The notes under the pieces were generated by a model. The model worked only from the letters and a program-made list of their open reading frames with translations, did not search any database and was not told the origin of the DNA. 64,000 nucleotides of DNA, from contig CAVOGL010000024.1 in the NCBI GenBank assembly GCA_963695415.1, forward strand, positions 124,802 to 188,801, read 5' to 3'. This DNA is from an uncultured Chloroflexia bacterium (lineage in GTDB: Bacteria > Chloroflexota > Anaerolineae > Anaerolineales > UBA4823). The stretch's first letter is position 1. Each line of letters starts with the position of its first letter. Below, in pieces: positions 8,598-57,620 of the stretch. A program made the position numbers and the translations under genes.

Positions 8598-10380
8598 AGC
8601 GCACCTTGGACCATACCACGAACAGGTATTGGCAGGATTGGATCAGTTGCGCCAGTCGCGCATCCTGCCGCGTATCTGGGCGCAGGACCATACCGTCTGG
8701 AGTAAGTCTCCGGTTGAGATCACTAACCGCCTGGGTTGGCTGCACAGCCCGGACAACATGCCAGCCGCGCTCCCCAGGATCAACATGTTTGTTCAGGAAA
8801 TCCGCTCTGCAGGTTTTACCCACGCCCTGCTGCTGGGCATGGGCGGCTCCAGCCTGGCGCCTGAAATGTTCCGTAATTCCTTCGGCGTCAGGGCAGGTTT
8901 CCTCGACCTGGCGGTTTTGGACAGCACCGACCCGGGCGCTGTACAGGCGCAGGCAGCCAGACTCGACCTGCAGCGCACGCTCTTCATTGTCTCGACCAAA
9001 TCCGGAGGGACGGTAGAAACCATCTCGTTTTTTAAGTTTTTCTACAACCAGGTCCAGGCTCTTGTGGGGGGCGATCGGGTTGGGGAGCACTTCATCGCCA
9101 TCACCGACCCGGGCAGCGGGCTGGCGAAAGTGGCTGAAAAGTACCGCTTCCGGCAGGTGTTTGAAAATGACCCCAACATCGGCGGGCGCTATTCCGCCCT
9201 GTCCTATTTCGGGCTGCTGCCAGCCGCCCTGGTTGGCGTGGACCTGCAGCTGCTGCTGGATCGCGCCCAGGCAGCTGCCACCCGCAGCCGTCAGGGTTTG
9301 CAGGATCCAGGCGAATACCTGGGCGCAGTTCTCGGGCAGCTGGCTCTGGCGGGTCGCGACAAGTTGACCCTGGTGATGTCAGACGCCATTGCTGGCTTTG
9401 CCGATTGGGTCGAGCAGCTGGTAGCAGAGAGCACCGGCAAGGATGGGAAGGGCATCGTGCCTGTTGTCGGTGAGGCATTGGCTGCGCCGCAGGACTATGC
9501 AGATGATCGTTTATTCGTGCATCTTCATTTGAAATCGGATTTAACTCAGACCGGTCTTGAGCATCAAGCTCAAGCTGAGCCTCAAGCTCAAGCTGAGCCC
9601 AAAGCTCAAGCTGAGCCCAAAGCTCAAGCTGAGCCTCAGGCTCAAGCTGAGCCCGATGCCTTGCATGCGTTGCAGCAGGCAGGTCATCCCGTTATCCACA
9701 TGCAGCTGGAGGATGTCTACGACCTCGGCGCCCAGATATTCATCTGGGAAATCGCCACCGCAGTTGCCGGTCACTGCCTGGGCATCCAGCCCTTCGACCA
9801 GCCAGATGTTGAGTCTGCCAAGGTCCTCGCCCGGCAGATGGTCTCTCAATACCAGCAGGATGGTGCCCTCCCCAAACAAGAACCGGATTTTCAGCAGGGA
9901 GGAATCAGTATTTTCGCCGGTCCTTCAATGAGCTTTTCCTCAGACGCGCCGGGCGAGATCCTGCGCCAATTCCTGGCTTCGGCGCGCCCGGGCGATTACG
10001 TCTCCCTCCAGGCTTACCTCCAGCCTCTGCCGGAAATCGATGCCATGTTGAATCGCCTGCGCGCGCATATCCGCTTGAAGACGCGGCTGGCGACCACCCT
10101 TGGCTACGGTCCCCGCTTCCTGCATTCCACCGGGCAGCTGCACAAAGGCGATGCAGGCAATGGCTTGTTTATCCAGTTCACACACGTGCCCTCGCACGAC
10201 TTGCCCATCCCGGATGAGGCTGGTTCAAGCGGTACAGCCATCAGCTTTGGCGTGCTCGAGCTTGCCCAGGCAATGGGCGACCGCCAGGCATTGCTGGACA
10301 AGCGCCGCCGCATCATCCGCTTCCATTTCGAGGGGAATGCGCTCAAGGCGCTTGAAGAGCTGATCAGCCAGTTGCAGTGA
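8584..10380 (+). CDS. pgi: glucose-6-phosphate isomerase with internal QAQAEP repeat insert
   Basis: 598-aa ORF; PGI/SIS motifs LLLGMGGSSLAPE, FIVSTKSGGTVET, GGRYSALSYFGL; overlaps tal by 14 nt. Confidence 0.9.
   Translation: MNQLKAHLGPYHEQVLAGLDQLRQSRILPRIWAQDHTVWSKSPVEITNRLGWLHSPDNMPAALPRINMFVQEIRSAGFTHALLLGMGGSSLAPEMFRNSFGVRAGFLDLAVLDSTDPGAVQAQAARLDLQRTLFIVSTKSGGTVETISFFKFFYNQVQALVGGDRVGEHFIAITDPGSGLAKVAEKYRFRQVFENDPNIGGRYSALSYFGLLPAALVGVDLQLLLDRAQAAATRSRQGLQDPGEYLGAVLGQLALAGRDKLTLVMSDAIAGFADWVEQLVAESTGKDGKGIVPVVGEALAAPQDYADDRLFVHLHLKSDLTQTGLEHQAQAEPQAQAEPKAQAEPKAQAEPQAQAEPDALHALQQAGHPVIHMQLEDVYDLGAQIFIWEIATAVAGHCLGIQPFDQPDVESAKVLARQMVSQYQQDGALPKQEPDFQQGGISIFAGPSMSFSSDAPGEILRQFLASARPGDYVSLQAYLQPLPEIDAMLNRLRAHIRLKTRLATTLGYGPRFLHSTGQLHKGDAGNGLFIQFTHVPSHDLPIPDEAGSSGTAISFGVLELAQAMGDRQALLDKRRRIIRFHFEGNALKALEELISQLQ
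9565..9654 (+). repeat. 5 x 18-nt in-frame tandem repeat (QAQAEP/KAQAEP) inside pgi
   Basis: units caagctcaagctgagcct / aaagctcaagctgagccc read directly; encodes QAQAEPQAQAEPKAQAEPKAQAEPQAQAEP. Confidence 0.95.
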
Positions 10381-10445
10381 TCCTGGAAAGGGAAAGTTGT
10401 GTTTGTGTATAGTAGTAGAGATAAATTGCTGGCAGGTTGGCTTCG

Positions 10446-10757
10446 ACCGGAAGGATGTGCGAATGAAGAAAATATCCAGGCGTGAATTTATCAGGCTCGC
10501 GGCCGCTGGATTCGGCGCCCTTGCGCTTGAGCCGCTGCTCTCCGCCTGCGAGCGGGTGCCTCCAACCGGGCTGCCTGCTGCCCAGTCGCCCACCGCAGCG
10601 GCAACGTCCAGCCCCACTCCCCAACCCTCATCCACCTCAACCCCCGAGCCTACCCTCGAACCGACAGCCACCCCCACGTTCACCCCGCAGCCAACCGAGA
10701 CGCCGACACCGACCGCAACGATGCCGCCACCGCCGGAGCCGGTGGGGCTTATGGACG
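10446..10757 (+). repeat. 312-nt cassette copy A (5'UTR end + Tat signal + lipobox + Thr/Pro linker)
   Basis: manual alignment to 13287-13598 shows 5 mismatches (1 in UTR, 4 synonymous). Confidence 0.9.
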
Positions 10758-11527
10758 AAAACGCCGCCCGCACTGACTATGACGGGGAGACCTGGACGGT
10801 GTACAACCAGAACGGTCAGGTAACTGCCAGGTGGAACCCGGAAACCGAAGACTGGGACTACAATCCCGAAAACATGACCCGGAAAATTGCGGTTTTTGGC
10901 AGGGCTGAAATGTTTGGCATACCGACTATCCCCGCTGAGATGACCCAATTCATGCCAGTTGACCCCGAGGACAAGCAGGACTTGATGTTTAGGGTGCAGG
11001 ACGAAAACGGCAACCTGATCCCGGCACCCTTTGGGTTTGTCAGGACATCAGGCAAAGACACCGCAAATACTGTAGCTGAAATTTTTCTGCTCAGGTACAG
11101 GGGGCTGGTACAGGGGAAGGATATGGGGCCATACAAGAATTGGTTTGCGGTCCTGGAATGCCCGATTTCGCCTGACCGGTCTGTATTTGTGCTCCACTGG
11201 CTGACAGATCAGGAAAACAGTGAAGGTTCAGCGGTAACAGTAGATAGAGACCTGACACCCTTATTTGCAGGAGAGCCACTTAATAATACAATTATAAATA
11301 GCAAAGTAAGTAGAATTTCGCAGGCGGAAGTGCTGGAAATTTTCCGGAATTTTGAAGTCGGCCGGCAGCTGCTGCAGTTTTATCATAATGTCAAAGACGG
11401 TCCTCAATCTGAGCCGGTGAGAAGCCTGAAGGAGGCCATACTAAGCGGGACAGTTCCCCTAAACACAACCATAGATCATGATAATGGTACTATATTTGGT
11501 GATGATCTTCATTTTTTCAAAAAATAA
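10463..11527 (+). CDS. Tat-signal lipoprotein, C-terminal domain of unknown function
   Basis: MKKISRREFIRLAAAGFGALALEPLLSAC (twin-Arg + lipobox), ~60-aa Thr/Pro linker, ~250-aa unrecognised domain; 3' third visibly AT-richer; ATG at 10463 preferred over ORF-track start 10397. Confidence 0.7.
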   Translation: MKKISRREFIRLAAAGFGALALEPLLSACERVPPTGLPAAQSPTAAATSSPTPQPSSTSTPEPTLEPTATPTFTPQPTETPTPTATMPPPPEPVGLMDENAARTDYDGETWTVYNQNGQVTARWNPETEDWDYNPENMTRKIAVFGRAEMFGIPTIPAEMTQFMPVDPEDKQDLMFRVQDENGNLIPAPFGFVRTSGKDTANTVAEIFLLRYRGLVQGKDMGPYKNWFAVLECPISPDRSVFVLHWLTDQENSEGSAVTVDRDLTPLFAGEPLNNTIINSKVSRISQAEVLEIFRNFEVGRQLLQFYHNVKDGPQSEPVRSLKEAILSGTVPLNTTIDHDNGTIFGDDLHFFKK

Positions 11528-11618
11528 ACAATAATTGTCTTGCTGGGGAGCAGGTTTCTAAAAACAACATAGGAGTTCAATATTGTATCCGGGCGGGTAT
11601 CTGCTAAACTAGGAATAT

Positions 11619-12206
11619 ATGGGTGAACTCAGGCTTCCAAGGGCGGTATATTCAGCGGCTTGCTTTCTGCTAGCGATAGCCATCGTTCCCAAAATTTCTC
11701 AAACATATGCTGACATATGTTCTCCGACCAGGGTGGTCTACCAGCGCGCGTGTCAGAACTGATGCAAAAACTATATGTGTAAGGTGGAAAGATTGTGGAT
11801 ATAACGAGGACTGCCGCGACAGTGGTGTCAGAACAACCTAAGCCGGCAGTGCGACACAAACGAAGACTGTAATTCTGGGGGGCCATATCCGACTTATGAC
11901 GGCCCCTGCGGCCCGGTCTGCCTGGAGGTGACCGACGACAGCGGCGGAGAGTATTGCGTCGATACCGGGAATATTGATGTACAGTGTACCGGCGAGTTTG
12001 ATACTCCGAGCTGTGTTTACGCCGGACCTCTCAACGAGTGCGACAGATGATCCAAATGACGGTTCATGCCTGAATACTACTATAAATGTCAATTACGGCT
12101 GCTGGATACTGGAGCCATCAGTTGCTCCCAGCACTTCTCCCGGAGCTACAAACACCCCCAGACCCACTTCGCCACCCGTAGCTACTCCGACACAGGCAGC
12201 CAACGG
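11619..12206 (+). pseudogene. fragmented Cys-rich secreted protein gene (at least 3 frame changes)
   Basis: ATG 11619 after aggaa gives MGELRLPRAVYSAACFLLAIAIVP... (47 aa). Other frames continue ...CVRWKDCGYNEDCRDSG, then QCDTNEDCNSGGPYPTYDGPCGPVCLEV...ECDR, then DDPNDGSCLNTTINVNYGCW + Thr/Pro linker. NEDC motif recurs. Confidence 0.35.
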
Positions 12207-12209
12207 CTG

Positions 12210-12295
12210 TCCGACGGGCAGTATCTCCACCCCCTCCACGCTTTGCAGCCGCCTGACGTACTCCTCGATGGGCACGGAGATCACCGGCTGGTTGT
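12210..12295 (-). pseudogene. PIN-domain (VapC-like) gene remnant
   Basis: encodes VISVPIEEYVRRLQSVEGVEILPV, matching internal residues IIPLPIEEYVRRLQSVDGLEILPV of the intact vapC at 14201-14581; about 70 nt of nucleotide homology; no N- or C-terminal parts. Confidence 0.6.
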
Positions 12296-12315
12296 GTTAA
12301 AATACGCTTAAAGGC

Positions 12316-12636
12316 TTGGTCATGAAAATTGATATTGATATTGCATCAGAAACTATGACATCCTTCTGCCAGAAATGGATGATCACCGAATTATGTCTGT
12401 TTGGCTCCGTCTTGCGCGACGATTTTGGACCAGGTAGCGATATTGACGTTCTGGTTACTTTTTCTACTGAAGCTCGCTGGAGCTTGTTCGATCTGGTTCA
12501 AATTGAAAATGAGCTCAGCCAGCTGCTTAAACGGAAAGTCGATCTGGTTGAGCGAGAAGCGGTCGCACGCAGCCCGAACTATATTCGCCGGAAAAATATT
12601 TTGGAGAGCGCCAAAGTGATTTATGCAGCGCGATGA
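12316..12636 (+). CDS. mntA: MNT-type nucleotidyltransferase antitoxin (type VII TA)
   Basis: GSVLRDDFGPGSDIDVLV nucleotidyltransferase motif; overlaps downstream HEPN gene by 14 nt; ATG at 12322 is an alternative start. Confidence 0.8.
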   Translation: MVMKIDIDIASETMTSFCQKWMITELCLFGSVLRDDFGPGSDIDVLVTFSTEARWSLFDLVQIENELSQLLKRKVDLVEREAVARSPNYIRRKNILESAKVIYAAR

Positions 12637-12970
12637 TAACGCTTACCTGCTGGATATCCTCATTGCTGCCAGGAAAGCAATGGGTTATCTGGAGGCAGTT
12701 ACCTGGGAGGATTTCGAATTGAGTGAACTCCATCAGGATGCAGTCATGCGTACACTGGAAATTATCGGTGAGGCAGCTAACCGTGTTTCCGAAACCAAGA
12801 GAGAATCACTTCCGGAAATCCCCTGGATGCAAATCATAGGGATGCGAAACCGGTTGGTTCACGAATATTTCCGCATCAACCTGGAAGCTGTCTGGGACAC
12901 TGTGAAGCAGGATTTACAGGAATTGGTGAATACACTTGAACCTCTGGTACCGAAGGAAAATGAACTTTAG
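12623..12970 (+). CDS. hepT: HEPN/DUF86 toxin (HepT)
   Basis: 115-aa ORF with Rx4-6H motif (RNRLVHEY) and typical DUF86 N-terminus (YLLDILIAARKA). Confidence 0.85.
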   Translation: MQRDDNAYLLDILIAARKAMGYLEAVTWEDFELSELHQDAVMRTLEIIGEAANRVSETKRESLPEIPWMQIIGMRNRLVHEYFRINLEAVWDTVKQDLQELVNTLEPLVPKENEL

Positions 12971-12990
12971 TCCAAAGACCATCATTAAAA

Positions 12991-13018
12991 ATCTGTGGAA
13001 ATCTGTGCCATCTGTGGT
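12991..13018 (+). repeat. three direct ATCTGTG(G) repeats followed by GTTAAAAAT
   Basis: atctgtggaa atctgtgcc atctgtgg ttaaaaat read directly, 20 nt after hepT stop. Confidence 0.6.
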
Positions 13019-13060
13019 TAAAAATATCCACTCTAAAACATATCGGTATCTAACAGCCCG

Positions 13061-13325
13061 ACATTCGCCTCATTCGCCCATTCGTTTCATTCGTATTAAA
13101 AACCTCCCCGGGCTTCTCGAATACATACAGCTCCGCAATCTCCATCTCCGCCGGGAGACAGTATCAATCTGCTTCACAGTCGTTATTCCCCAAAGGATTG
13201 TGACGATTTACGGACGAATGACACCTGACAGCGAGGCAGAGGTTTTGTATATTAAAAGCGAGGCAAGGATAGACTGGTTGATCCTAACCGGAAGGATGTG
13301 CGGATGAAGAAAATATCCAGGCGTG
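13061..13325 (+). repeat. 265-nt repeat copy 1 (CATTCG array + promoter-like region + leader + first codons of Tat signal)
   Basis: about 96% identical by eye over the first ~235 nt to 14901-15135; one 1-nt indel. Confidence 0.85.
13225..13253 (+). promoter_or_regulatory. candidate sigma-70-type promoter of lipoprotein gene B
   Basis: cTGACA (13225-13230) - 17 nt - TATATT (13248-13253), about 50 nt upstream of ATG 13304; identical pair in the 15064-15092 copy. Confidence 0.45.
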
Positions 13326-13598
13326 AATTTATCAGGCTCGCGGCAGCTGGATTCGGCGCCCTTGCGCTTGAGCCGCTGCTCTCCGCCTGCGAGCGGGTGC
13401 CTCCAACCGGGCTGCCTGCTGCCCAGTCGCCCACCGCAGCGGCAACGTCCAGCCCCACTCCCCAACCCTCATCCACCTCAACCCCCGAGCCTACCCTCGA
13501 ACCGACAGCCACCCCCACGTTCACCCCGCAGCCCACCGAGACGCCGACACCGACCGCAACGATGCCGCCTCCACCGGAGCCGGTGGGGCTTATGGACG
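13287..13598 (+). repeat. 312-nt cassette copy B
   Basis: see 10446-10757; identity ends abruptly after ...cttatggacg. Confidence 0.9.
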
Positions 13599-14222
13599 CG
13601 ATATTTTTCTATGGGTGACACACAGGACCGTCCGCAGATATTAAGCGTTACTCCCAATATTATAGATATAAACGGTTTGGATGAGGCAAGCGGTTACAAA
13701 GATGTACGGATCGTGGCCACGTATTCAGATTCAGACGGTGCCAGCGCAATTGAGCGCGGATATGTAGGCATGTCGCAGTGCAGTATCAATCCGGGAGCGG
13801 CTTATGGTAGCAATTTCGAGCATAATTTCGCCAATTATTTCGGCGCTTACTATAATATCACCGGCGCGTGGGGAGGGGTGGCTACAAATAACGCCGCAGC
13901 TTTATGTGACGGAAACACTGATGGGTCAGGCTCCCCATGGACCAGCTTCTGGGCTGAGGCAGGTCATGAATTGCCCATGTCAAACCCCAACAGCATGATA
14001 ACCGTGATGAGCCACACCAGAGTGCCAAACGTAGTTAATAAAACCATTGACTTCATCTGGAATTTGAGAATTGACACCAATATCAGCGCCGGGACTTATT
14101 ACTATCACGGCATGGTTTCAGAGACGGCTGCAGCCGGAGGCAGCTATCAGAACCATGGCAAAGCCAGTTGGAGCGAACCATATTGGACTGGCGCGAACCC
14201 CTACCAGACCGTTTTTGCATAA
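13304..14222 (+). pseudogene. Tat-signal lipoprotein paralog; signal/linker out of frame (+1) with an unrelated C-terminal domain
   Basis: 13304-13618 encodes the same 98-aa signal/linker as gene 10463 then stops (..GLMDAIFFYG*). The 13323-14222 frame continues MGDTQDRPQILSVTPNIIDING... (204 aa from ATG 13611); no family recognised. Confidence 0.5.
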
Positions 14223-14581
14223 AACTCAGCCATCCTCCCATCAGACGTCAGCAAAGGACACTCGAAACGCGCCGCCAGTGCCACGATCGTGCGGTCTGCC
14301 GGGTCGCGGTGCTCCCATTCGAGGTTCAGGTTGTCCAGCCAATCCTGCACATCGACGGGCAGTATCTCCAACCCGTCTACGCTTTGCAGCCGCCTGACGT
14401 ACTCCTCGATGGGCAGTGGGATTATCAGCTTCTTGCGCTTGACCTTCAGCCCAATTTCCCAAACTGAAATCGAGCTGACCAGGATGCGGTCTGCCTGGGA
14501 GATAGCCTGTTTTGCGGGTCCGGATAACGCCTCTGGGTCCAGGGTCCAGTAAAGCAGAGCCGATGTGTCCAGGACGATCAC
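14201..14581 (-). CDS. vapC: PIN-domain toxin VapC
   Basis: 126-aa ORF; MIVLDTSALLYW (first acidic residue), SSISVWEI, DPADRTIVA, TSD motifs typical of PIN; GTG start abuts antitoxin stop. Confidence 0.85.
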   Translation of the reverse strand: MIVLDTSALLYWTLDPEALSGPAKQAISQADRILVSSISVWEIGLKVKRKKLIIPLPIEEYVRRLQSVDGLEILPVDVQDWLDNLNLEWEHRDPADRTIVALAARFECPLLTSDGRMAEFYAKTVW

Positions 14582-14815
14582 TCAGGCCTCTTCCCATTCA
14601 GCCAGGGTGGGCTCATTGATATTTTCCAGGTAGGTGACTTTGCCCTGCACCTTGCCAAACAATTCCTGAACGGAACTCTTCGGCTTGATCGGCGATATTT
14701 TCAGCACCGGTGTTCCGTGATCCGTGACGATCAACTCACCTCCGCTTGCTTCCAGCTCCCGGAATACTTCCAGCATCTTTGCTTTCAATTTGCTTTTCGA
14801 TATTGTATTTTCCAT
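14582..14815 (-). CDS. Phd/YefM-family antitoxin
   Basis: 77-aa ORF directly upstream of vapC; KAKMLEVFRELEASGGELIVTDHGTPVLKISP matches Phd/YefM fold pattern. Confidence 0.8.
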   Translation of the reverse strand: MENTISKSKLKAKMLEVFRELEASGGELIVTDHGTPVLKISPIKPKSSVQELFGKVQGKVTYLENINEPTLAEWEEA

Positions 14816-14838
14816 CCATGTACTCCAATATAATGACC

Positions 14839-14886
14839 ATAGTCATTACTATAGTCATTATAAATCAGGAACTATTTACCTGTCAA
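14839..14886 (-). promoter_or_regulatory. promoter and operator of the phd-vapC operon
   Basis: minus strand TTGACA (14886-14881) - 18 nt - TATAAT (14862-14857). Downstream lie palindrome TAATGACcataGTCATTA (14831-14848) and direct repeat ATAGTCATTA at 14839 and 14851. Confidence 0.6.
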
Positions 14887-14900
14887 TATCACCTCTCACA

Positions 14901-15165
14901 ACATTCGCCTCATTCGCCCATTCGTTTCATTCGTATTAAAACCTCCCCGGGCTTCTCGCATACATACAGCTCCGCAATCTCCATCTCCGCCGGGAGACAG
15001 TATCAAACTGCTTCACAGTCGTGATTGTCCAAAGGATTGTGACGATTTACGGACGAATGACACCTGACAGCGAGGCAGAGGTTTTGTATATTAAAAGCGT
15101 GGCAAGGATAAACTGGTTGATCCTAATCGGAAGGGAGTAACATGAAGAAAATATCCAGGCGAGAT
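14901..15165 (+). repeat. 265-nt repeat copy 2 upstream of and into the DUF362 gene
   Basis: see 13061-13325. Confidence 0.85.
15064..15092 (+). promoter_or_regulatory. candidate promoter of the DUF362/polyferredoxin operon
   Basis: cTGACA (15064-15069) - 17 nt - TATATT (15087-15092); same sequence as 13225-13253. Confidence 0.45.
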
Positions 15166-16111
15166 TTTGTGAAGATTGCCGCTGCTGGTCTGGGCGCTAT
15201 AGCGCTCGAGCCCCTGCTCTCCGCCTGCAAGCCCCAGGAAGTGGCTGTTCCTGTCACCGCTCCAACGGTGCAGCCAACAACCCCCGAGCCAGCGAAGACC
15301 GCAAACGGTCCCGATCTGGTCGTGGCGCGCAACCTTGAGCCGGAAGAGCTGGTGCGCAGGGCCCTGGCTGCCCTGGGAGGGATGCAGCGCTTCGTGCCCA
15401 AAGGCGCCAGCGTGATCGTCAAGCCCAATATCTGCGTGGCGTACCACACCTACGAATACGCCGCCACCACCAACCCCTGGGTGGTCGCAGCCCTGGTGCG
15501 GTTAGCCCTCGAAGCTGGGGCGCGGCAGCGTGCAGGTGATGGATTACCCCTTTGGCGGCTCCGCCGAGGAAGCCTACGTGAAGAGCGGCATCCAGGAGCA
15601 GGTGCAGGCTGCCGGCGGTGAGATGGTGTCCATGCCTCGCTTCAAATACGCCGAGGTGAACCTTCCTGATGCGGTTGACCTCAAGAGCACCCAGGCATTT
15701 CAGGATGCCCTCGACGCCGATGTGCTCATCGACGTGCCCATCGCCAAACACCACGGCTCTGCCCGCCTGACCCTGGGGATGAAAAACCTGATGGGGCTGG
15801 TCCTCGACCGCGGCGCCATCCACCAGGACCTGGGGCAGCGCATTGCCGACCTCGCCAGCCTGTTCCGCCCGGCATTGACGGTCGTGGACGCCGTGCGCAT
15901 CCTCAAGGCGCACGGTCCCTCCGGCGGGGACTTGAATGATGTCCAGCAGCTGGATACGCTCATCGCCAGCGCCGACATCGTCGCCGCCGACAGCTACGCC
16001 GCCACCCTGTTCGGCATGCAGCCCGGCGATATCGCCTACGTTGCCGCAGCCTCCCGCATGGGTCTCGGGCGCAGCGACCTGGAGAACCTCAAGATTGAAG
16101 AGATCTCGTAA
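15142..16111 (+). pseudogene. Tat-signal DUF362-domain protein, one apparent frameshift near 15520
   Basis: 15142-15621 gives MKKISRRDFVKIAAAG...LLSAC...VIVKPNICVAY...LALEAGAR. The 15530-16111 frame continues VQVMDYPFGG...IAKHHGSARLTLGMKNLMG (DUF362 hallmarks). Join at gcgcggcag-c-gtgcaggtg. Confidence 0.75.
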
Positions 16112-17690
16112 AGGAAAAGCTGCAGGCATTTCGCCATCGTCCAGCCGCTGGATCGTTGCCAGGAAAGTCGTCCAGTATGCCTGCCTGCTGGCTTTTATCG
16201 TCCTGTTCTTCGCTGCACGTCGCAGCGGGCTCGGGTCCACCCAGGATTCCCTCCCTGGATGGGTCAACCTGCCCATGCGCCTGGACCCCCTGCTCATCCT
16301 GGCAAACCTGTTCTCCAGCCGCGTCTTCCTGGCAGGCTCAGCCTTAGCCCTGCTCACGATTCTCCTGACCCTGGTCTTCGGGCGCGCCTGGTGCGGCTGG
16401 GTCTGCCCCCTGGGCACCCTCCTCGATCTTTTCTCGCTGAAGCGCTGGCGCGGGCATCGCCAGCCGCCTTCTGAAAACTGGCGCGCTGCCAAGTACGGCT
16501 TGCTGATCGTGATCCTGGTCGCCGCGCTGCTGGGCAACCTGGCGCTGCTCGCCCTCGATCCCCTCACCCTCCTCTTCCGCACCCTCACCACCAGCCTGCT
16601 GCCGGCTCTGGATTGGGCATTCACCCGCCTGGAGATCTTTCTTTACCCGCTTCCCTTCCTGTCCGGTGCAGTGTCAACCCTGGATGGCTGGATCCGTCCG
16701 CTCATCCTTCCCTCCGAGCCGGTTTATTACCGCAATGTGATCGTATTCACGGGCATCTTCCTCGGCGTGATCGCCCTCAACCTGCTGGCAGAGCGCTTCT
16801 GGTGCCGCTACCTTTGCCCTCTCGGCGCCATGCTCGGGCTGTTTTCCAAGGTCGCCCTGTTCCGCCGCCAGGTGGGAGAGGACTGCCGCGGCTGTGCCCT
16901 GTGCGAGAAATCCTGCCCCACCGGCACCATCGATCCGCAGAAGGGCTACTCCAGCGACCCGGCTGAGTGCACCATGTGCCTGGACTGCCTGGAAGCCTGC
17001 CCGCGCAGCCTGATCGCCTTCCAGCCGCGCCTGTCGGCAGCGCCCTGGAACCATTACGACCCCGGGCGCAGGGAGTTCTTGCTCTCCGCGGGCGCCGCCA
17101 TCGCCGCTCTGGCGCTGCTGCGTTCCAGCAGCCTGGCAAAGCGCCAGCCCCCGCACCTGCTTCGCCCGCCTGGCTCGCGCGAAAGCAACCAGGATGCGCT
17201 GGAGATGGAGCGCTGCATCCGCTGCGGGGAGTGCCTGCGCGCCTGCCCGACCAGCGCACTTCAGCCTGCCATGCTTGAAGCCGGATTTCAAGGGCACGCT
17301 ACCCCGCTCCTCGTCCCCCGCCTGGGTTACTGTGACTATGCCTGCAACGCCTGCGGTCAGATCTGCCCGGTGCAGGCGATTCCCCCTCTGAGCCTGGAGC
17401 AGAAACGCACACAGGTTATCGGCAAAGCTTACATCGACCAGAACCGCTGTATCCCCTGGGCAGACCAGCAGACCTGCCTCGTCTGCGAAGAGATGTGCCC
17501 CATCCCCGAGAAAGCCATCCTCCTCGAGACGCAGGAAGTGTACAATGCGCAGGGAGAGCGGGTCAGCGTGCAGGTTCCCCGGGTAGTGCGCGAGCGTTGT
17601 ATCGGCTGCGGCATCTGCGAATACAAGTGCCCCCTCAACGGCGAGGCCGCCATCCGCGTCTTTGTCCCCCAGACCTTCATTCCCTTTTAA
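16095..17690 (+). CDS. membrane-bound polyferredoxin (NapH/YccM-like, multiple 4Fe-4S)
   Basis: TM helices with GRAWCGWVCPLG and FWCRYLCPLG; CxxCxxCxxxCP motifs (CRGCALCEKSCP, CIRCGECLRACP, CIGCGICEYKCP, others). No ATG; TTG at 16095 overlapping the DUF362 stop is my best start guess. Confidence 0.7.
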   Translation: MKRSRKGKAAGISPSSSRWIVARKVVQYACLLAFIVLFFAARRSGLGSTQDSLPGWVNLPMRLDPLLILANLFSSRVFLAGSALALLTILLTLVFGRAWCGWVCPLGTLLDLFSLKRWRGHRQPPSENWRAAKYGLLIVILVAALLGNLALLALDPLTLLFRTLTTSLLPALDWAFTRLEIFLYPLPFLSGAVSTLDGWIRPLILPSEPVYYRNVIVFTGIFLGVIALNLLAERFWCRYLCPLGAMLGLFSKVALFRRQVGEDCRGCALCEKSCPTGTIDPQKGYSSDPAECTMCLDCLEACPRSLIAFQPRLSAAPWNHYDPGRREFLLSAGAAIAALALLRSSSLAKRQPPHLLRPPGSRESNQDALEMERCIRCGECLRACPTSALQPAMLEAGFQGHATPLLVPRLGYCDYACNACGQICPVQAIPPLSLEQKRTQVIGKAYIDQNRCIPWADQQTCLVCEEMCPIPEKAILLETQEVYNAQGERVSVQVPRVVRERCIGCGICEYKCPLNGEAAIRVFVPQTFIPF

Positions 17691-17740
17691 CGCCCGAGTA
17701 TTAAAAATAATATTTCTTTGCCATATTTGTTTTAATCGCT

Positions 17741-17770
17741 TATTCGAAACATTCGTGTTAAAAATCCCCC
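17741..17770 (+). repeat. CATTCG / GTTAAAAAyCCCC box copy
   Basis: tattcgaaacattcgtgttaaaaatcccccc; related to 13062-13109, 14902-14948, 57568-57620. Confidence 0.5.
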
Positions 17771-17837
17771 CATTCCACCCGGATTTGAAACCGGTATAAT
17801 GAGCACTCACCTTAGAATCCCAGGAGGCAACCAGCTC

Positions 17838-23655: not shown

Positions 23656-23862
23656 TTATATGGGCATTACTTCCTGTGCCTGCGGTCCTTTCGCTGCCTG
23701 AACAACGGTGAACTCAACCCGCTGTCCTTCGGTGAGGGACTTATAGCCTTCACCAACGATGGCATTGAAATGGACAAAAACGTCCCCGCCTGCATCGCGC
23801 TCGATGAAGCCGTAGCCTTTTGTAGCATTGAACCATTTAACCGTACCTTGCTCTTTCGCCAT
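23656..23862 (-). CDS. csp: cold-shock protein (CspA family)
   Basis: 68 aa; [15 protein letters not shown] (RNP1) and VFVHF (RNP2). Confidence 0.95.
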
Positions 23863-26615: not shown

Positions 26616-26822
26616 TTAAATTGCCACAACTTCTTGAGCCTGCGGTCCTTTTTGACCCTGGACAACGGTAAATTCTACACGTTGACCTTCGTCAAGGGTT
26701 TTATAGCCATCACTGATGATCGCGTTGAAGTGAACAAACACATCACCGCCAGCATCGCGCTCGATAAAGCCGTAGCCTTTTGAGCCGTTGAACCATTTAA
26801 CCGTACCTTGTTCTTTTGCCAT
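26616..26822 (-). CDS. csp: cold-shock protein (CspA family), second copy
   Basis: 68 aa; [20 protein letters not shown]. Confidence 0.95.
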
Positions 26823-27014: not shown

Positions 27015-28740
27015 TTGAACCAAACCATGAAATGCCCGAGCTGTGGTGCGACGGTCGAATTTGATCCGGGTGGGACTCCCGTTGTTCGTTGTCCCTATTG
27101 CCAGACCTCCATCATAATTCCAACCGAATTGCGCCAACCCGCATCCTTACCGGTCCAAATGTTTCAGCGCCCCGGTTGGTCAGACCAAATCCTGCAGCCA
27201 GCCCAGGTCGCCAGTATCCAGGAGTTAGCTCGACTTGCTCACCAGGGGGACAAGATTGAGGCGATTAAAATTTACCGGCAGGTCTTTGGCGCAAGCCTCC
27301 AGGAATCGATAGACGCCGTAGAAAGTATCCAACAGGGTCATAATATCTCTAACCCACAGACGTCAACGCCCGGTCCATTTCTGCAGGATAAGCAGGTCAA
27401 GGATGAGGTTTCTCGTTTACTGCAGGACGGGCGTAAGATCGAAGCGATTAAGTATTACCGCCAGGTTACCGGGCAGAGTTTGAAGGATTCTAAGGAAGCG
27501 GTTGATAATTTTCAATCAAACGGTTCTCTCAATTTGCCTGCTTCTCCGGGTACATACCCTGCCGAGAATATATATCTGGCGGTCAGCCTGGTATCTGTGG
27601 TAGAGCTGGTTCAGGCAGGTGAAGAACAGGCAGCAATTTCCGCCTTCCAGGGTGCATTTGGTGTCGGTTTTGCGGAAGCGCATGCAAGCGGTTCATAAAA
27701 TTTCCCTGGGCGTTACCCAGGATGCGCTGGCAATCGATCCAACCCGGCAAACATTCAATACCATCAAAATTCCTGAGGTTTCTTCCAAAGCCATGAAAAC
27801 AACCGCCGGAGTGGTTGGCGGTATCTCATGTTTATGGGTGTTTGGAGTGATTGCAGTGATTCTCATAACAGTAGTACCGGTATTGTTTGCTCTCAGCAGT
27901 TCGGGCGGACCCCTGGAATTCATCTGGAATCAAATCAACCCGATGGCATACGCCCGGGTTAGCTTGAGATTCGGTGAAGAGGGTAGAGCTCCTGGAATGT
28001 TCGATGATCCGCGCCAGATGACGATTGATCCGCAAGAAAACTTACTCATCGCCAATTACTCGGATGGTCGCGTTCAGAAATTTGATTCATCGGGTGACTA
28101 CATGATGCTCTGGAATATCGGAACGGAGAAATATGTCAGCGGGATAGCATCAGACCAGGATGGTGCTGTTTATCTGGTCTATCGCGGCGGGCTCTGGAAG
28201 TACGCTTCAGAAACAGGTGAGCTTCTGGGCAGGATGGCTGAGAATATGGATGCCTGGTTTGAGGTTGTTGCCACTACAGCCGATAATGGTGTTGTTGCCG
28301 CTGTGAATACGGAACAGATTATGCGCTTTGATTCGAAGGGAAATCTGGTTTTTTCCTTAGCAGATATCCCCGGCACGCAGAGCGGAAAGCCTGATAGAAT
28401 CCAGGACATCGCGGTCGATGGAGTTGGTGGAATGTATGTGCTTTCTGATCGCGGCACGATCAACATTTACACACCCCAGGGTCGTCTGGTCACTCGCTTC
28501 GGTAGCGCCGGTGATGAACAGGGTCAGTTGCGTGCTCCTTCAGCGATTGCGGTGGATGGACTGGGTAATATTTACATCAGTGATATCAAAGGGATTCAAG
28601 TTTTTACGAATGATGGGCGCTACCTGGATCGCATTGAGACCGAAGGTTTCGCCTTCGGCATGGAATTTGATGCTCAAGGCGCTCTTTGGGTGGTCACCAA
28701 TCTGCCCAAAGTTTTCAAATACGAGATCGTTGAACGGTGA
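27015..28740 (+). pseudogene. zinc-ribbon / 3 x L7-L12-C-like repeat / TM / NHL beta-propeller protein, one apparent +1 insertion at 27681
   Basis: CPSCGATVEF..CPYCQT; repeats IEAIKIYRQVFGASLQESIDAVESIQ and IEAIKYYRQVTGQSLKDSKEAVDNFQ. The third repeat AAISAFQGAFGVGFAEA|MQAVHKIS is completed only across the frame change. Then TM helix and NHL-like blades (GNIYISD, GGMYVLSD). Confidence 0.65.
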
Positions 28741-28834
28741 GGAGAAACTAAACCGCACACAGTCCGGAACGCTTATTTGTTACAATTCGATCTGTAACAG
28801 TCCAACGCCATCCTGTGCCTTAGGAGAGATCCAG

Positions 28835-30314
28835 ATGGACTACGCCCCAGAAAATGAAGGTCACATGCTCCAGGTCAGGAACTATATCGAGCACCATCCT
28901 GAGCCCGGTTACCAGCATGCCTCCGATGAAGCCAAAGAAGCTTTTCGCGACATGAAGTACGGTGTGCGCATCCATTGGGGGCTTTACACGCTGTGGAACC
29001 TGCGCAACGAATCCTGGAAATTTCTGCGCATGTCTCGCCAGCGGCGCCAGGCTTACCAGCAGCTTTACCAGGAGTTCAACCCCCAGAATTTTGATGCCGA
29101 CGCCTGGATGGAATTTTTTAAGAGGGTTGGTTTCAGGTGCTTTGCCATCACCACCAAGCACCACGAAGGCTTCTCACTGTTTGACACCCGGACGCGCGTG
29201 CGCAGCAGGATGAATTGGGCAGCTCCTGGCGGTCCGCAGATCGAAGACTGCGACCTGGCTTACAGCGTGATGGACACACCCTTCAAGCGCGACATTATTG
29301 CCGAGTTGTGTGCATCAGCCCAACAGCATGGCATCAAAACCGACCTGTATTTTTCCCACCCCGATTGGTACGACGCTGACTTTCGCCCCTACAGCTTTCA
29401 CCCTCTCCAAACCCAGAGAGTTCTACGATCTGCCGCAAGAATATGGCACGGTCGAGTACGTGAATTTACTCAAACCACCTCGCCACATATTGTCTCCTGA
29501 GCCATCTCCTGAAGAAGTCCAGCGCATGATGGCGCGACACCGTGCTCAGCTGGTCGAATTACTCACCAACTACGGCAAAATCGACATGCTCTGCCTGGAT
29601 ATGTGGCTTGGCAAGCCCGTCTGGTCTGAGCTGCGTCAGACGATCAAGCTGCTGCGCCAGATCCAGCCCGACGTTATGCTGCGCATTCGTGGCATCGGCA
29701 ATTACGGCGATTACTACACTCCCGAAGGGATTGTTCCCGCGGACAAAGCCGAGACCAATATGCCCTGGATGGTGATTTACCCCCTGGGACGCACCTTTTC
29801 CTACGAAACGCAGGTCCGGTTTCACAAAGGACCGGATTGGATCATCCGCAATCTGATCCAGTGCACGGCTACGGGAGGCAATTTCATGGTTGGGATCGGT
29901 CCTGATGCGGATGGCTGGTTTCACCCGCGCGCAATTGAGGTGCTTGAACAGGTGGGAGAATGGCTTCAACTGAACGGCGAGGCAATCTATGCCACCCGCC
30001 CTCACACTCCATGGCATGACGGTCAGGGTATCTTCTTCTCGAAGGCAAAAGACAACCGCTCCATTTATGCCTTCTTCTGCGAGGATGCCTGGAAAGAGGC
30101 GCGTAAATCAGGTCGTTTGATCCTTGGATCCATTCCAGTCCGGCAGGGATTGCAGATTACGCCGCTTGGTGTCGATTCAACGCCCACATCTTCAGGGCTG
30201 GAATGGTCCCAGGAGGGTCAATCCCTGGTCGTACACCTTCCTGCTCGAGTGAGTGAGCAGATGCACCGGACCATCCGGTTTGCCAGGGTTTTTAAATTCT
30301 CTTATTCATCATAG
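28835..30314 (+). pseudogene. alpha-L-fucosidase (GH29), frameshift near 29400
   Basis: YGVRIHWGLYT, FAITTKHHEGFSLFDT, then frame change (..DADFRPY | KPREFYDLPQEYG), DMLCLDMW, TGGNFMVGIGPDADG; ATG 28835 after aggagag. Confidence 0.75.
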
Positions 30315-46641: not shown

Positions 46642-48267
46642 ATGAAACAAACCGACATAAAACAAGTTAAGATACATTCAAAAATCACCCGGCGGCAATT
46701 CCTCCAGGCAGCTGCTTTGGGGATGGGAGGTGTGGCTCTGTCACCTTTGTTGTCTGCCTGCAGCCAGATTCTAGCTCAGGACAACTTGCTAGTTTCCTCA
46801 CCCACAAAACAACCTGTCTTATCCACTCCGGCAGCCGCTGTACCGGCCGAATTGGTGGAGATCAGCCTCAAAGCTGCCCCAGGGAGATTCCAAATTCTCC
46901 CTGGCGCCGAGACACGCCTCTGGCATTATCAGGCAGACCTTCTTCAGGGCTCGCCGGCAAGTCTGCAATTCCTCCCTGGCGCTTATCCGGGACCGGTCTT
47001 GCGGTTGTCTCGCGGTCAGGTTTTGCGTGTTCACTTTGAAAACCAGATCAAAGAACCTACAACCATCCACTGGCATGGTCTCAGTGTGCCAGCTGAGATG
47101 GATGGTCATCCCCGGGATGCGGTTAATGATGGCGCAACTTTTGTTTATGAATTCCCTGTCATAAACCGCGCCGGCACTTATTGGTTCCACCCCCACCCGC
47201 ACCAGCGCACCGGTCCGCAGGTTTATTATGGTCTTGCCGGTCTTTTAATTGTCTCGGATGAGGCTGAAGCTGCCCTGGGGCTTCCTTCAGGGGAATTTGA
47301 CCTGCCCCTGGTGCTCCAGGACCGTCTTTTTGATGATCAGAACCAGCTCGACTACTCCGGCGATCCGATGGTTGGGTTCCTGGGCGATCGCATCCTGGTC
47401 AATGGTCAGGTCGATTATCGCCTTGAAGTTTCTGCCTCACCCTACCGCTTGCGCCTGCTCAACGGATCAAATGCCCGTATTTATAAACTTGCCTGGGACG
47501 ATGCAACACCTTTGACCGTCATTGCCACGGATGGTGGTCTGCTCGAAAGACCAATCCAGCGCGGATATGTGACCCTGGCGCCGGGTGAGCGTGTTGAGCT
47601 GTACGCTGACTTCAGCGCCGACAAGCTCGGAACACATCGCCGCCTGGTCAGTCAGGTCTTTGATGTTGGTGAAATCGGTATGGGAGCCATGATGGGGGGA
47701 CGCTCAACGGGATTGCCACAGGGTGGCGAGATGGTTGTCCTCCAGCTGGCTGTAACTCACACCGGGCAGCAGGATGTTCCCTTGCCAGAAACCCTGGGAA
47801 ATCAAGGTTTTTATTCTGAACGGGATGCCGTCAATTATCGCCGTCCGCGCCGGTTCGACCTCACCATGCACATGTCAGGTTTCATCAACGGGCGCGATTT
47901 CGAGATGGATTCGGTCGCTTCACATGAAGTCGTGCGTCTGGGGGACCTCGAAGTATGGGAGTTTAACAATCTAGGTGGTAGGATGGGGATGATGGGTGGG
48001 ATGGACCAACCGCATCCCATGCATATCCACGATGTGCAGTTCCAGGTTCTGGAACGCCGGCTGGGGGACGGCTCGAATCAGGTTTACAATTCCTTGTCTG
48101 CCGGTTTTGTGGATCATGGTTGGAAGGATACCGTTTTGGTCATGCCGGGTGAAGTCGTCCGCGTGCTGGTAAAATTCGAGCACTACGCCGGTTTGTTCCT
48201 GTATCACTGCCACAACCTGGAACATGAGGACGGCGGTATGATGCGCAACTATCGTATCGAAAGTTAA
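46642..48267 (+). CDS. multicopper oxidase (CopA/CueO-like) with Tat signal and lipobox
   Basis: 541 aa; RRQFLQAAALG...LLSAC; copper ligand motifs IHWHG, WFHPHPH, HPMHIHDVQF, HCHNLEHEDGGMM. Confidence 0.9.
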   Translation: MKQTDIKQVKIHSKITRRQFLQAAALGMGGVALSPLLSACSQILAQDNLLVSSPTKQPVLSTPAAAVPAELVEISLKAAPGRFQILPGAETRLWHYQADLLQGSPASLQFLPGAYPGPVLRLSRGQVLRVHFENQIKEPTTIHWHGLSVPAEMDGHPRDAVNDGATFVYEFPVINRAGTYWFHPHPHQRTGPQVYYGLAGLLIVSDEAEAALGLPSGEFDLPLVLQDRLFDDQNQLDYSGDPMVGFLGDRILVNGQVDYRLEVSASPYRLRLLNGSNARIYKLAWDDATPLTVIATDGGLLERPIQRGYVTLAPGERVELYADFSADKLGTHRRLVSQVFDVGEIGMGAMMGGRSTGLPQGGEMVVLQLAVTHTGQQDVPLPETLGNQGFYSERDAVNYRRPRRFDLTMHMSGFINGRDFEMDSVASHEVVRLGDLEVWEFNNLGGRMGMMGGMDQPHPMHIHDVQFQVLERRLGDGSNQVYNSLSAGFVDHGWKDTVLVMPGEVVRVLVKFEHYAGLFLYHCHNLEHEDGGMMRNYRIES

Positions 48268-57555: not shown

Positions 57556-57567
57556 ACCTGCCTGACC

Positions 57568-57620
57568 TATTCGCCCCATTCGTCCATTCGCATCATTCGT
57601 GTTAAAAACCCCCGTCCCCC
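57568..57620 (+). repeat. CATTCG array / GTTAAAAACCCCC box copy
   Basis: tattcgccccattcgtccattcgcatcattcgtgttaaaaacccccgtccccc in the hutI-hutH spacer. Confidence 0.55.

Follow-up and report, generated by a model that had tools for sequence, protein, structure and literature searches.

A 64-kb stretch of DNA from an uncultured Chloroflexia bacterium (contig CAVOGL010000024.1), referred to below at its full length as the window, carries three neighboring genes in which related leaders precede three unrelated mature parts. Gene A encodes an intact lipoprotein, gene B consists of a near-identical copy of the 5' end of gene A (the cassette) followed by an unrelated open reading frame (ORF), and gene C encodes a lipoprotein with a DUF362 domain; the parts of genes A and B that follow the cassette are termed cargo A and cargo B (Table 1). 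The arrangement probably goes back to a one-off unequal crossover between neighboring lipoprotein genes that shared a captured signal peptide, followed by decay, a reading that is held here with moderate confidence.

Repeat blocks and a candidate tandem duplication

Three blocks of sequence occur twice in the region of genes A to C. The first is the cassette of 312 nucleotides (nt), the two copies of which differ at five positions (98.4% identity; blastn E 1e-155), one in the 5' untranslated region (10462) and four at synonymous third codon positions (10504, 10693, 10729, and 10732). The first base of codon 99 is still identical and only noise lies beyond it. The second block lies upstream of genes B and C and is 96.5% identical over 226 positions (7 mismatches and 1 indel), with the promoter-like pair CTGACA-17-TATATT present in both copies (13225-13253 and 15064-15092). 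An exact recount agrees with the five differences (one untranslated, four synonymous) that an earlier note on this DNA had described, and its estimate of approximately 96% for the upstream block, promoter-like pair included, was close. The third block is a piece of vapC (12212-12274 versus 14353-14415; 3 of 63 positions differ, 95% identity). Two adjacent units, 10446-13286 and 13287-15134, each contain the cassette, the vapC piece, and the upstream block in one common order and orientation (comparison of 10381-13286 with 13287-15240), and the divergences of the blocks (1.6% for the cassette, 3.5% for the upstream block, and 4.8% for the vapC piece), which rest on small counts, do not differ significantly (Fisher p 0.14-0.16). 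Since the three blocks are collinear, a tandem duplication is indicated that would have extended from the ribosome-binding site of gene A to the end of the region upstream of the DUF362 gene.

A further, older similarity links genes A and C. Over its first 91 nt (15142-15232), gene C matches the start of the cassette at 80% identity, in keeping with the suggestion that the DUF362 signal is a diverged relative of the same module, and a longer alignment (10448-10553 versus 15128-15232) gives approximately 106 nt at 77% identity. This similarity includes the ribosome-binding site and stops directly after the lipobox. In a three-way alignment, gene B equals gene C up to ...GGTTGATCCTAA / GATCCTAA and equals gene A from CCGGAAGG onward, and the switch falls at the 5' edge of the A-C homology, which is the likely substrate of the crossover. 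The junction of the duplication is placed at 13286/13287. It joins the end of a unit, with its DUF362-type promoter, to the start of a unit, with the coding sequence of gene A, and the mosaic structure of gene B follows from this. The earlier description of gene B as a chimera made by recombination, with a C-like promoter and leader and an A-like signal and linker, is supported. Tandem arrays of the gene A family elsewhere (locus L085, at least three copies) were also counted in favor of duplication. Between pgi and gene A lies a unique spacer of 65 nt (10381-10445), which aligns only weakly with the regions upstream of genes B and C.

The following order of events would account for the locus. 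In a first and older step, gene A would have acquired the ribosome-binding site and Tat-type (twin-arginine) signal of the DUF362 lineage, which would have left two direct homologous stretches of approximately 106 nt (77-80% identity) at a distance of a few kb from each other. In a second, recent step, to which the collinear blocks point, unequal crossover or slippage between these 5' regions would have duplicated in tandem everything between the ribosome-binding site of gene A and the end of the region that lies upstream of the DUF362 gene, and its product, a DUF362-type promoter region joined to the coding start of gene A, would be gene B. In a third step, unit 2 may have lost the body of gene A past the residues GLMD, such that the module came to lie beside the orphan cargo B and one base out of frame with it, while in unit 1 part of vapBC may have been replaced by an MNT-HEPN pair and a neighboring gene may have decayed.

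Several points weigh against this sequence of events. The interiors of the two units share just 63 nt, and the model has to assume three or more additional deletions or replacements within approximately 2-4% divergence; this divergence of the interiors through deletions and replacements is the weakest step of the model. Moreover, vapC similarity is approximately 60% outside the 63-nt core, and the block could derive from a different vapC paralog. Finally, the four coding differences between the cassettes are without exception synonymous (P approximately 0.006 if both copies were neutral and approximately 0.04 if only that of gene B were), and this mildly favors a gene B module kept under selection as part of a functional gene over a decaying remnant.

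Mosaic identity with sharp switches could also arise if genes A, B, and C were old and independent and their 5' ends had been homogenized by gene conversion, from A to B in the coding part and from C to B in the promoter, with no duplication of the interval. The cassettes are somewhat closer to each other than the upstream blocks are (98.4% versus 96.5%), and the exclusively synonymous coding differences likewise fit such concerted evolution. Conversion, however, requires homology on both sides of the converted tract, and downstream of the cassette no trace of gene A family sequence was found in gene B. Gene B is therefore not an older paralog awaiting conversion. As the collinear vapC block would also be left without an explanation, this alternative is considered unlikely.

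An artifact of assembly, in which two strain variants (cassette with cargo A and cassette with cargo B) were strung serially into one metagenome contig, is less probable again. No close genome was present in the collections searched; the best DUF362 relatives all come from metagenome-assembled genomes (MAGs), so that the source is probably one too; and three genes show apparent 1-nt indels, which suggests that the assembly was error-prone and probably made from long reads. A false join at 13286/13287 would nevertheless have to rest on approximately 106 nt at 77-80% identity, far under the overlap criteria of assemblers. The copies also differ by single-nucleotide polymorphisms and have unique contexts on both sides, and the upstream block is present twice as well. 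The tandem duplication is retained as the working interpretation in what follows.

Gene A, its relatives, and its signal peptide

Gene A corresponds to protein P0001 in the database, and a word-indexed search of 5.8 billion proteins with gene A returned P0001 itself, on a contig of 209,586 nt, as the sole match. An exhaustive HMMER search (phmmer) with cargo A recovered 22 matches, of which approximately 20 are true relatives (E 3e-32 to 1e-3) and two are repetitive chance matches. Of the two domains that the earlier note had listed as unknown, cargo B remains an orphan and cargo A belongs to a family of remote homologs. The relatives share a layout of Sec-type lipobox signal, Thr/Pro linker, conserved motif, and following domain. 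Its signal type aside, gene A conforms to this layout and to the motif of the family (P0009-P0029), P-x-V-x-x-G-L-x-x-x-N-A...W.V.N..G..TA.W, which in its fuller form reads P-S-V-x-x-G-L-R/M-P/D-E-N-A-A...W-V-V-K-N..G.V-T-A-T-W. Sixteen columns are invariant in the family alignment (A2), among them those of gene A residues P90, L96, N100, and A101.

This motif lies across the 3' end of the cassette (D98|E99), as is seen when the closest relative (...PVPLGLMDINAKTTVYDGTTWTVYNKDG) is compared with gene A (...PEPVGLMDENAARTDYDGETWTVYNQNG), and the residues at the cassette end, P90...L96, are part of the conserved start of the family. Because the motif spans the cassette end, gene A is best read, from these alignments, as one contiguous and native member of its family, and cassette B as a copy of the start of gene A that breaks off inside the conserved motif. 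A discrete cassette, as originally proposed, does not fit a 3' end in that position. Two other results point the same way. An AlphaFold model of gene A built from 14 sequences (predicted local distance difference test, pLDDT, 66.6) is confident from approximately residue 91 (76 for residues 91-100 and 92-95 for residues 101-120) and had no match among folds in the PDB. Across the cassette boundary, the G+C content at third codon positions (GC3) holds at 0.7-0.8 in gene A, whereas gene B has 0.71 in the cassette and only 0.54 in cargo B. Farther along gene A, GC3 remains at 0.7-0.8 to approximately residue 200, and drops to approximately 0.43 in the C-terminal half, with 0.07 over the final 14 codons. 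The 3' half of the gene may differ in origin from the rest. The sequence of cargo A had no match in Pfam, NCBIfam, PADLOC, PHROG, or the PDB, nor in 80 related DUF362 loci taken from genome collections, nearly all of which are labeled Anaerolineae or Chloroflexota MAGs.

The signal peptide of gene A sets it apart from its family. None of the approximately 20 true relatives has a twin-arginine signal, and every one that retains an N-terminus is of the Sec type. The signal of gene A (MKKISRREFIRLAAAGFGALALEPLLSAC), on the other hand, is Tat-type and shares 80% nucleotide identity, with an exact run of 20 nt, with that of the neighboring gene C; DUF362 signals in related genomes share only 47-69% with the gene C signal. 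From these identities we infer that gene A took its ribosome-binding site and signal from the DUF362 lineage. A caveat is that such Tat-lipobox signals recur in this genome in stereotyped form. An unrelated ORF (46642-48267) encodes a twin-arginine lipoprotein signal at 46681-46761 (KITRRQFLQAAALGMGGVALSPLLSAC) with 57-63% amino acid identity to its counterparts in genes A and C and no nucleotide match to them. Gene A would represent a member of a lipoprotein family that changed from a Sec-type to a Tat-type signal, the export route being a prediction from sequence.

Members of the gene A family occur in comparable surroundings elsewhere. The array in locus L085 (262-3006) comprises its copies, at least three, at a spacing of approximately 1 kb; in locus L086 (582-2887) a relative has as neighbors a Phd/PIN toxin-antitoxin pair and the gene for a Y1 (IS200-type) transposase; and the gene for P0009, the closest relative, has a gene for a helix-turn-helix/MqsA-like antitoxin upstream. 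The habitat of the family seems to be variable regions that are rich in toxin-antitoxin genes.

Gene B, gene C, and the surrounding sequence

The body of gene B lies in the +1 frame relative to the ORF of the cassette, beside a run of five T residues, as had been noted before; the stop codon of the stub ORF is 3 nt past the ATG of cargo B. With one T fewer in the run, the two would be joined in frame (...GLMDAIFSMGDTQ...). Gene B could be a decaying remnant, or it could encode a lipoprotein stub of 104 amino acids (aa) followed by a separate ORF of 203 aa, as annotated in the database. An intact and newly formed fusion lipoprotein is plausible if the T run is an assembly indel, because two conserved genes of the window also show 1-nt shifts. 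Programmed frameshifting was rejected, as ATATTTTTC does not have the form of a canonical slippery site and a +1 shift would be needed. Cargo A and cargo B have no similarity to each other, as the earlier description had it. For cargo B, no homologs were found in the word-indexed protein search, the PDB, Pfam, NCBIfam, PADLOC, PHROGs, plasmids, or phages, and no match in the 80 related loci; its single-sequence AlphaFold model is poor (pLDDT 44), with a beta-rich fold predicted at low confidence. For annotation, the two apparent orphans call for caution, given that P0001 belongs to a genuine, though uncharacterized, family and P0008 may be a fragment or fusion partner.

In the window, no cassette copy was found beyond the two near-identical ones and the one at 80% identity, and in the word-indexed protein search P0001 alone carried the module. 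Exact-pattern scans gave no matches in GTDB genomes (for the start of the signal) or in JGI metagenomes (for the junction of cassette and cargo); a looser lipobox pattern matched two metagenome contigs. Rfam had no match to the upstream blocks.

Table 1. Features of the locus, with positions counted from the first letter of the window.
Feature	Position	Strand	Remark
Weak promoter-like pair TGGAAA-18-TATAGT	10384..10413	+	Within the 65-nt spacer between pgi and gene A
Cassette A: ribosome-binding site, Tat-type signal, lipobox LLSAC, Thr/Pro linker, start of gene A family motif (PVGLMD)	10446..10757	+	
Gene A: intact 354-aa lipoprotein, database protein P0001	10463..11527	+	Uncharacterized lipoprotein family, Tat-type signal
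Pseudogene G2: signal peptide, Cys-rich region, Thr/Pro linker cut by the vapC fragment	11619..12211	+	Two in-frame stops and one frameshift
vapC (PIN toxin) internal fragment	12212..12274	-	Middle collinear block of unit 1
MNT-HEPN (nucleotidyltransferase / HepT) toxin-antitoxin pair	12316..12970	+	Holds the place of the vapC 5' part and vapB of unit 2
Upstream block B, begins with CATTCG octamer element	13061..13286	+	96.5% identical to 14901-15125
Cassette B: probable truncated copy of the 5' part of gene A	13287..13598	+	Differs from cassette A at 5 of 312 nt
Gene B stub ORF of 104 aa: the module followed by AIFFYG and a stop codon (13616-13618)	13304..13618	+	
T5 run adjoining the junction	13604..13608	+	With one T fewer, module and cargo B would share a frame
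Cargo B ORF, 203 aa, ATG at 13611	13611..14222	+	Separate protein P0008 in the database; orphan
Intact vapC (PIN) and vapB (Phd/YefM-like) pair	14201..14815	-	
Upstream block C: native upstream region of gene C (DUF362)	14901..15125	+	
Gene C: Tat-lipoprotein, DUF362	15142..16111	+	1-nt insertion near 15525
Membrane 4Fe-4S protein, conserved DUF362 partner in Anaerolineae	16140..17690	+	Core-genome side; 16140 is the query coordinate

Gene C is assigned to DUF362 by PF04015 (E 9e-34) and carries a twin-arginine signal (TIGR01409, 18.2 bits; cut-off 16.7), and its frame is broken by 1 nt. The pairing of a DUF362 gene with a downstream 4Fe-4S gene is kept in most of the 80 loci, the best relatives reaching 76-77% protein identity, and the DUF362 proteins of these loci have a twin-arginine signal, lipobox, and Thr/Pro linker of their own. 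No second copy of the module before another gene was found in them. In one locus (L082), two complete DUF362 genes stand in tandem. The shift in gene C falls at approximately 15517-15530, where an extra G (GCGCG[G]CAGC) is present relative to the in-frame gene of L008, and the nearest relative (L007, MAG MFD04716.bin.2.130, approximately 9985-10000) has a one-base shift at the same DUF362 codon. The shared position suggests a systematic sequencing error in a GCGCGG-like context and not two independent pseudogenes. The shifts in genes B and C may both be assembly indels. Elsewhere in the window, an alpha-L-fucosidase gene (28418-30314) is split into two overlapping ORFs (Pfam positions 22-206 and 190-345), with the frame changing near CCAAACCCAGAGAG at approximately 29400.

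The earlier note had concluded that recombination is moving one secretion module between cargo genes. A locus of this kind would recombine a module of promoter, Tat-type lipobox signal, and linker onto different cargoes, perhaps with on/off switching through the T5 run, in the manner of erp or vsp/vlp genes. Related leaders do stand before three different mature parts, the promoter-like sites are conserved, the module copies differ by synonymous changes only, and gene A points to an earlier exchange of signals. Only two near-identical copies, however, are present in the window and the protein database, and the boundary of the module falls inside a family domain. Further, neither recombinase nor transposase was found among the ORFs examined within approximately 10 kb on either side, no inverted repeats relevant to the units or bounding them were found, a T5 run is short for slipped-strand switching, and neither the 80 loci nor the protein database yielded an equivalent locus or another protein with the module. 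A single tandem duplication with indels explains the mosaic, and modular diversification of the locus is accordingly rated as very unlikely. It is also hard to credit, at the lower end of that same range, that in Anaerolineae the module undergoes recombination time and again and thereby brings new mature domains to the cell surface, with gene A an earlier product, gene B a fresh one (an intact fusion lipoprotein, or one switched at the T run), and cargoes that vary between strains. The earlier note had itself named a single duplication with no other cargo partners as the outcome that would speak against module movement, and this is largely what the window, the protein database, and the 80 loci contain. 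Nothing points to a dedicated shuffling mechanism; what is seen is ordinary genome turnover.

The locus as a whole is a variable stretch between core genes, bordered on the left by tal and pgi and on the right by the DUF362 gene with its Fe-S partner. G+C content is 60-68% in the flanking core genes, 68% in the cassettes, and 42-55% in the DNA between the cassettes. This low G+C content, the toxin-antitoxin modules between the cassettes, and the direct repeats around an apparent insert, as a single crossover would produce, are all features expected of a Campbell-type insertion, in which a foreign circle with a copy of the promoter and signal, cargo B, and vapBC would have integrated by homologous recombination at the 5' region of the resident gene, with the homologous segment being doubled. 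The flanking repeats are not the same, however: genes A and B have a coding part in common, and genes B and C a promoter part. As no mobility genes were found near the locus and cargo B had no plasmid or phage matches, an origin of this kind is rated as very unlikely, and duplication of a resident interval, with later loss and replacement, remains the preferred account.

Some further features of the region were recorded. The homology of the upstream blocks of genes B and C begins exactly at a dispersed intergenic element without Rfam match, copies of which occur at 13061-13111, 14901-14951, 17723-17773, and 57567-57617, with a variant at 12988-13025. It consists of three or four tandem 8-9-mers CATTCGNN (in the variant AATCTGTGG) followed by GT(A/G)TTAAAAA and a run of C. 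An attC or integron reading of these CATTCG...GTTAAAAA elements was rejected, as they are without hairpin symmetry and without integrase. Before vapB, on the minus strand, a perfect sigma-70-type TTGACA-18-TATAAT pair at 14829-14886 overlaps a 34-nt palindrome (14829-14862) and is probably an autoregulated toxin-antitoxin promoter/operator. Whether cargo B is the former C-terminal domain of G2 was tested by a search with the repaired G2 translation; no homologs were found. Additionally, pgi contains six tandem 18-nt repeats (9540-9677) that encode (A/P)QAEP(K/Q) units as an in-frame low-complexity insertion, and a repeat scan of the whole window found a 225-nt pair that corresponds to two 68-aa cold-shock-protein paralogs on the minus strand (23656-23862 and 26616-26822; 80% DNA identity).

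Comparison with known systems

Polymorphic toxins, to which the locus had been likened, include contact-dependent inhibition (CDI), Rhs, and MafB proteins, and share with it a conserved N-terminal part, an abrupt change to a variable C-terminal part, and small genes downstream. Here, however, the cargoes have no toxin or defense signatures in Pfam, NCBIfam, PADLOC, or PHROG, and the genes downstream are complete, self-contained type II toxin-antitoxin pairs (MNT-HEPN and, on the other strand, vapBC) rather than cognate immunity genes. Likeness to an integron or attC array is not indicated either, in that no integrase was found among the ORFs examined within approximately 10 kb on either side and no inverted repeats at the borders of the units.

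In the vsa, vsp, and vlp loci of Mycoplasma, a 5' region with a lipoprotein signal stands before variable bodies, and a homopolymer tract lies near the start of one gene. Variable lipoprotein loci of Mycoplasma use a site-specific recombinase with inverted sites, or long homopolymers in the promoter, and hold many silent copies. No recombinase, inverted sites, long homopolymer, or large set of copies was found here in the window and the approximately 10 kb on either side of the locus that were examined for them, and the only comparable feature is the T5 run, such that the proposed likeness to variable-lipoprotein expression sites is not borne out.

A closer resemblance might be sought in the erp genes of Borrelia burgdorferi (ospE/ospF/elp, with an 'upstream homology box'), in which mature parts that arose independently stand behind one conserved promoter/operator and leader peptide (PMC10016077). 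Here too, related leaders stand before three unrelated mature parts. The erp genes, however, occur as many allelic copies on cp32 prophages, whereas the present set is chromosomal and comprises two near-identical copies, one of them out of frame, and a diverged one. The common part of erp genes also ends just past the lipidation and sorting residues, while the identity between genes A and B crosses the linker into the folded domain (P90, L96). A segment limit of the erp type at the lipobox fits only the older similarity between genes A and C, not that between genes A and B.

If the duplication is accepted, the locus would offer a clean and datable case in which a signal common to neighboring genes seeds an unequal crossover and a new chimera of promoter and leader results. 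It would illustrate, in a phylum that has been studied little, how genes are born and signal peptides exchanged, with no new mechanism involved. The locus differs from other chimeras at the junctions of tandem duplications in that the interiors of its units have been almost wholly replaced, with three short blocks remaining. It shares with them adjacent units with collinear blocks, a junction that joins the end of one unit to the start of the next, and prior homology at both breakpoints.

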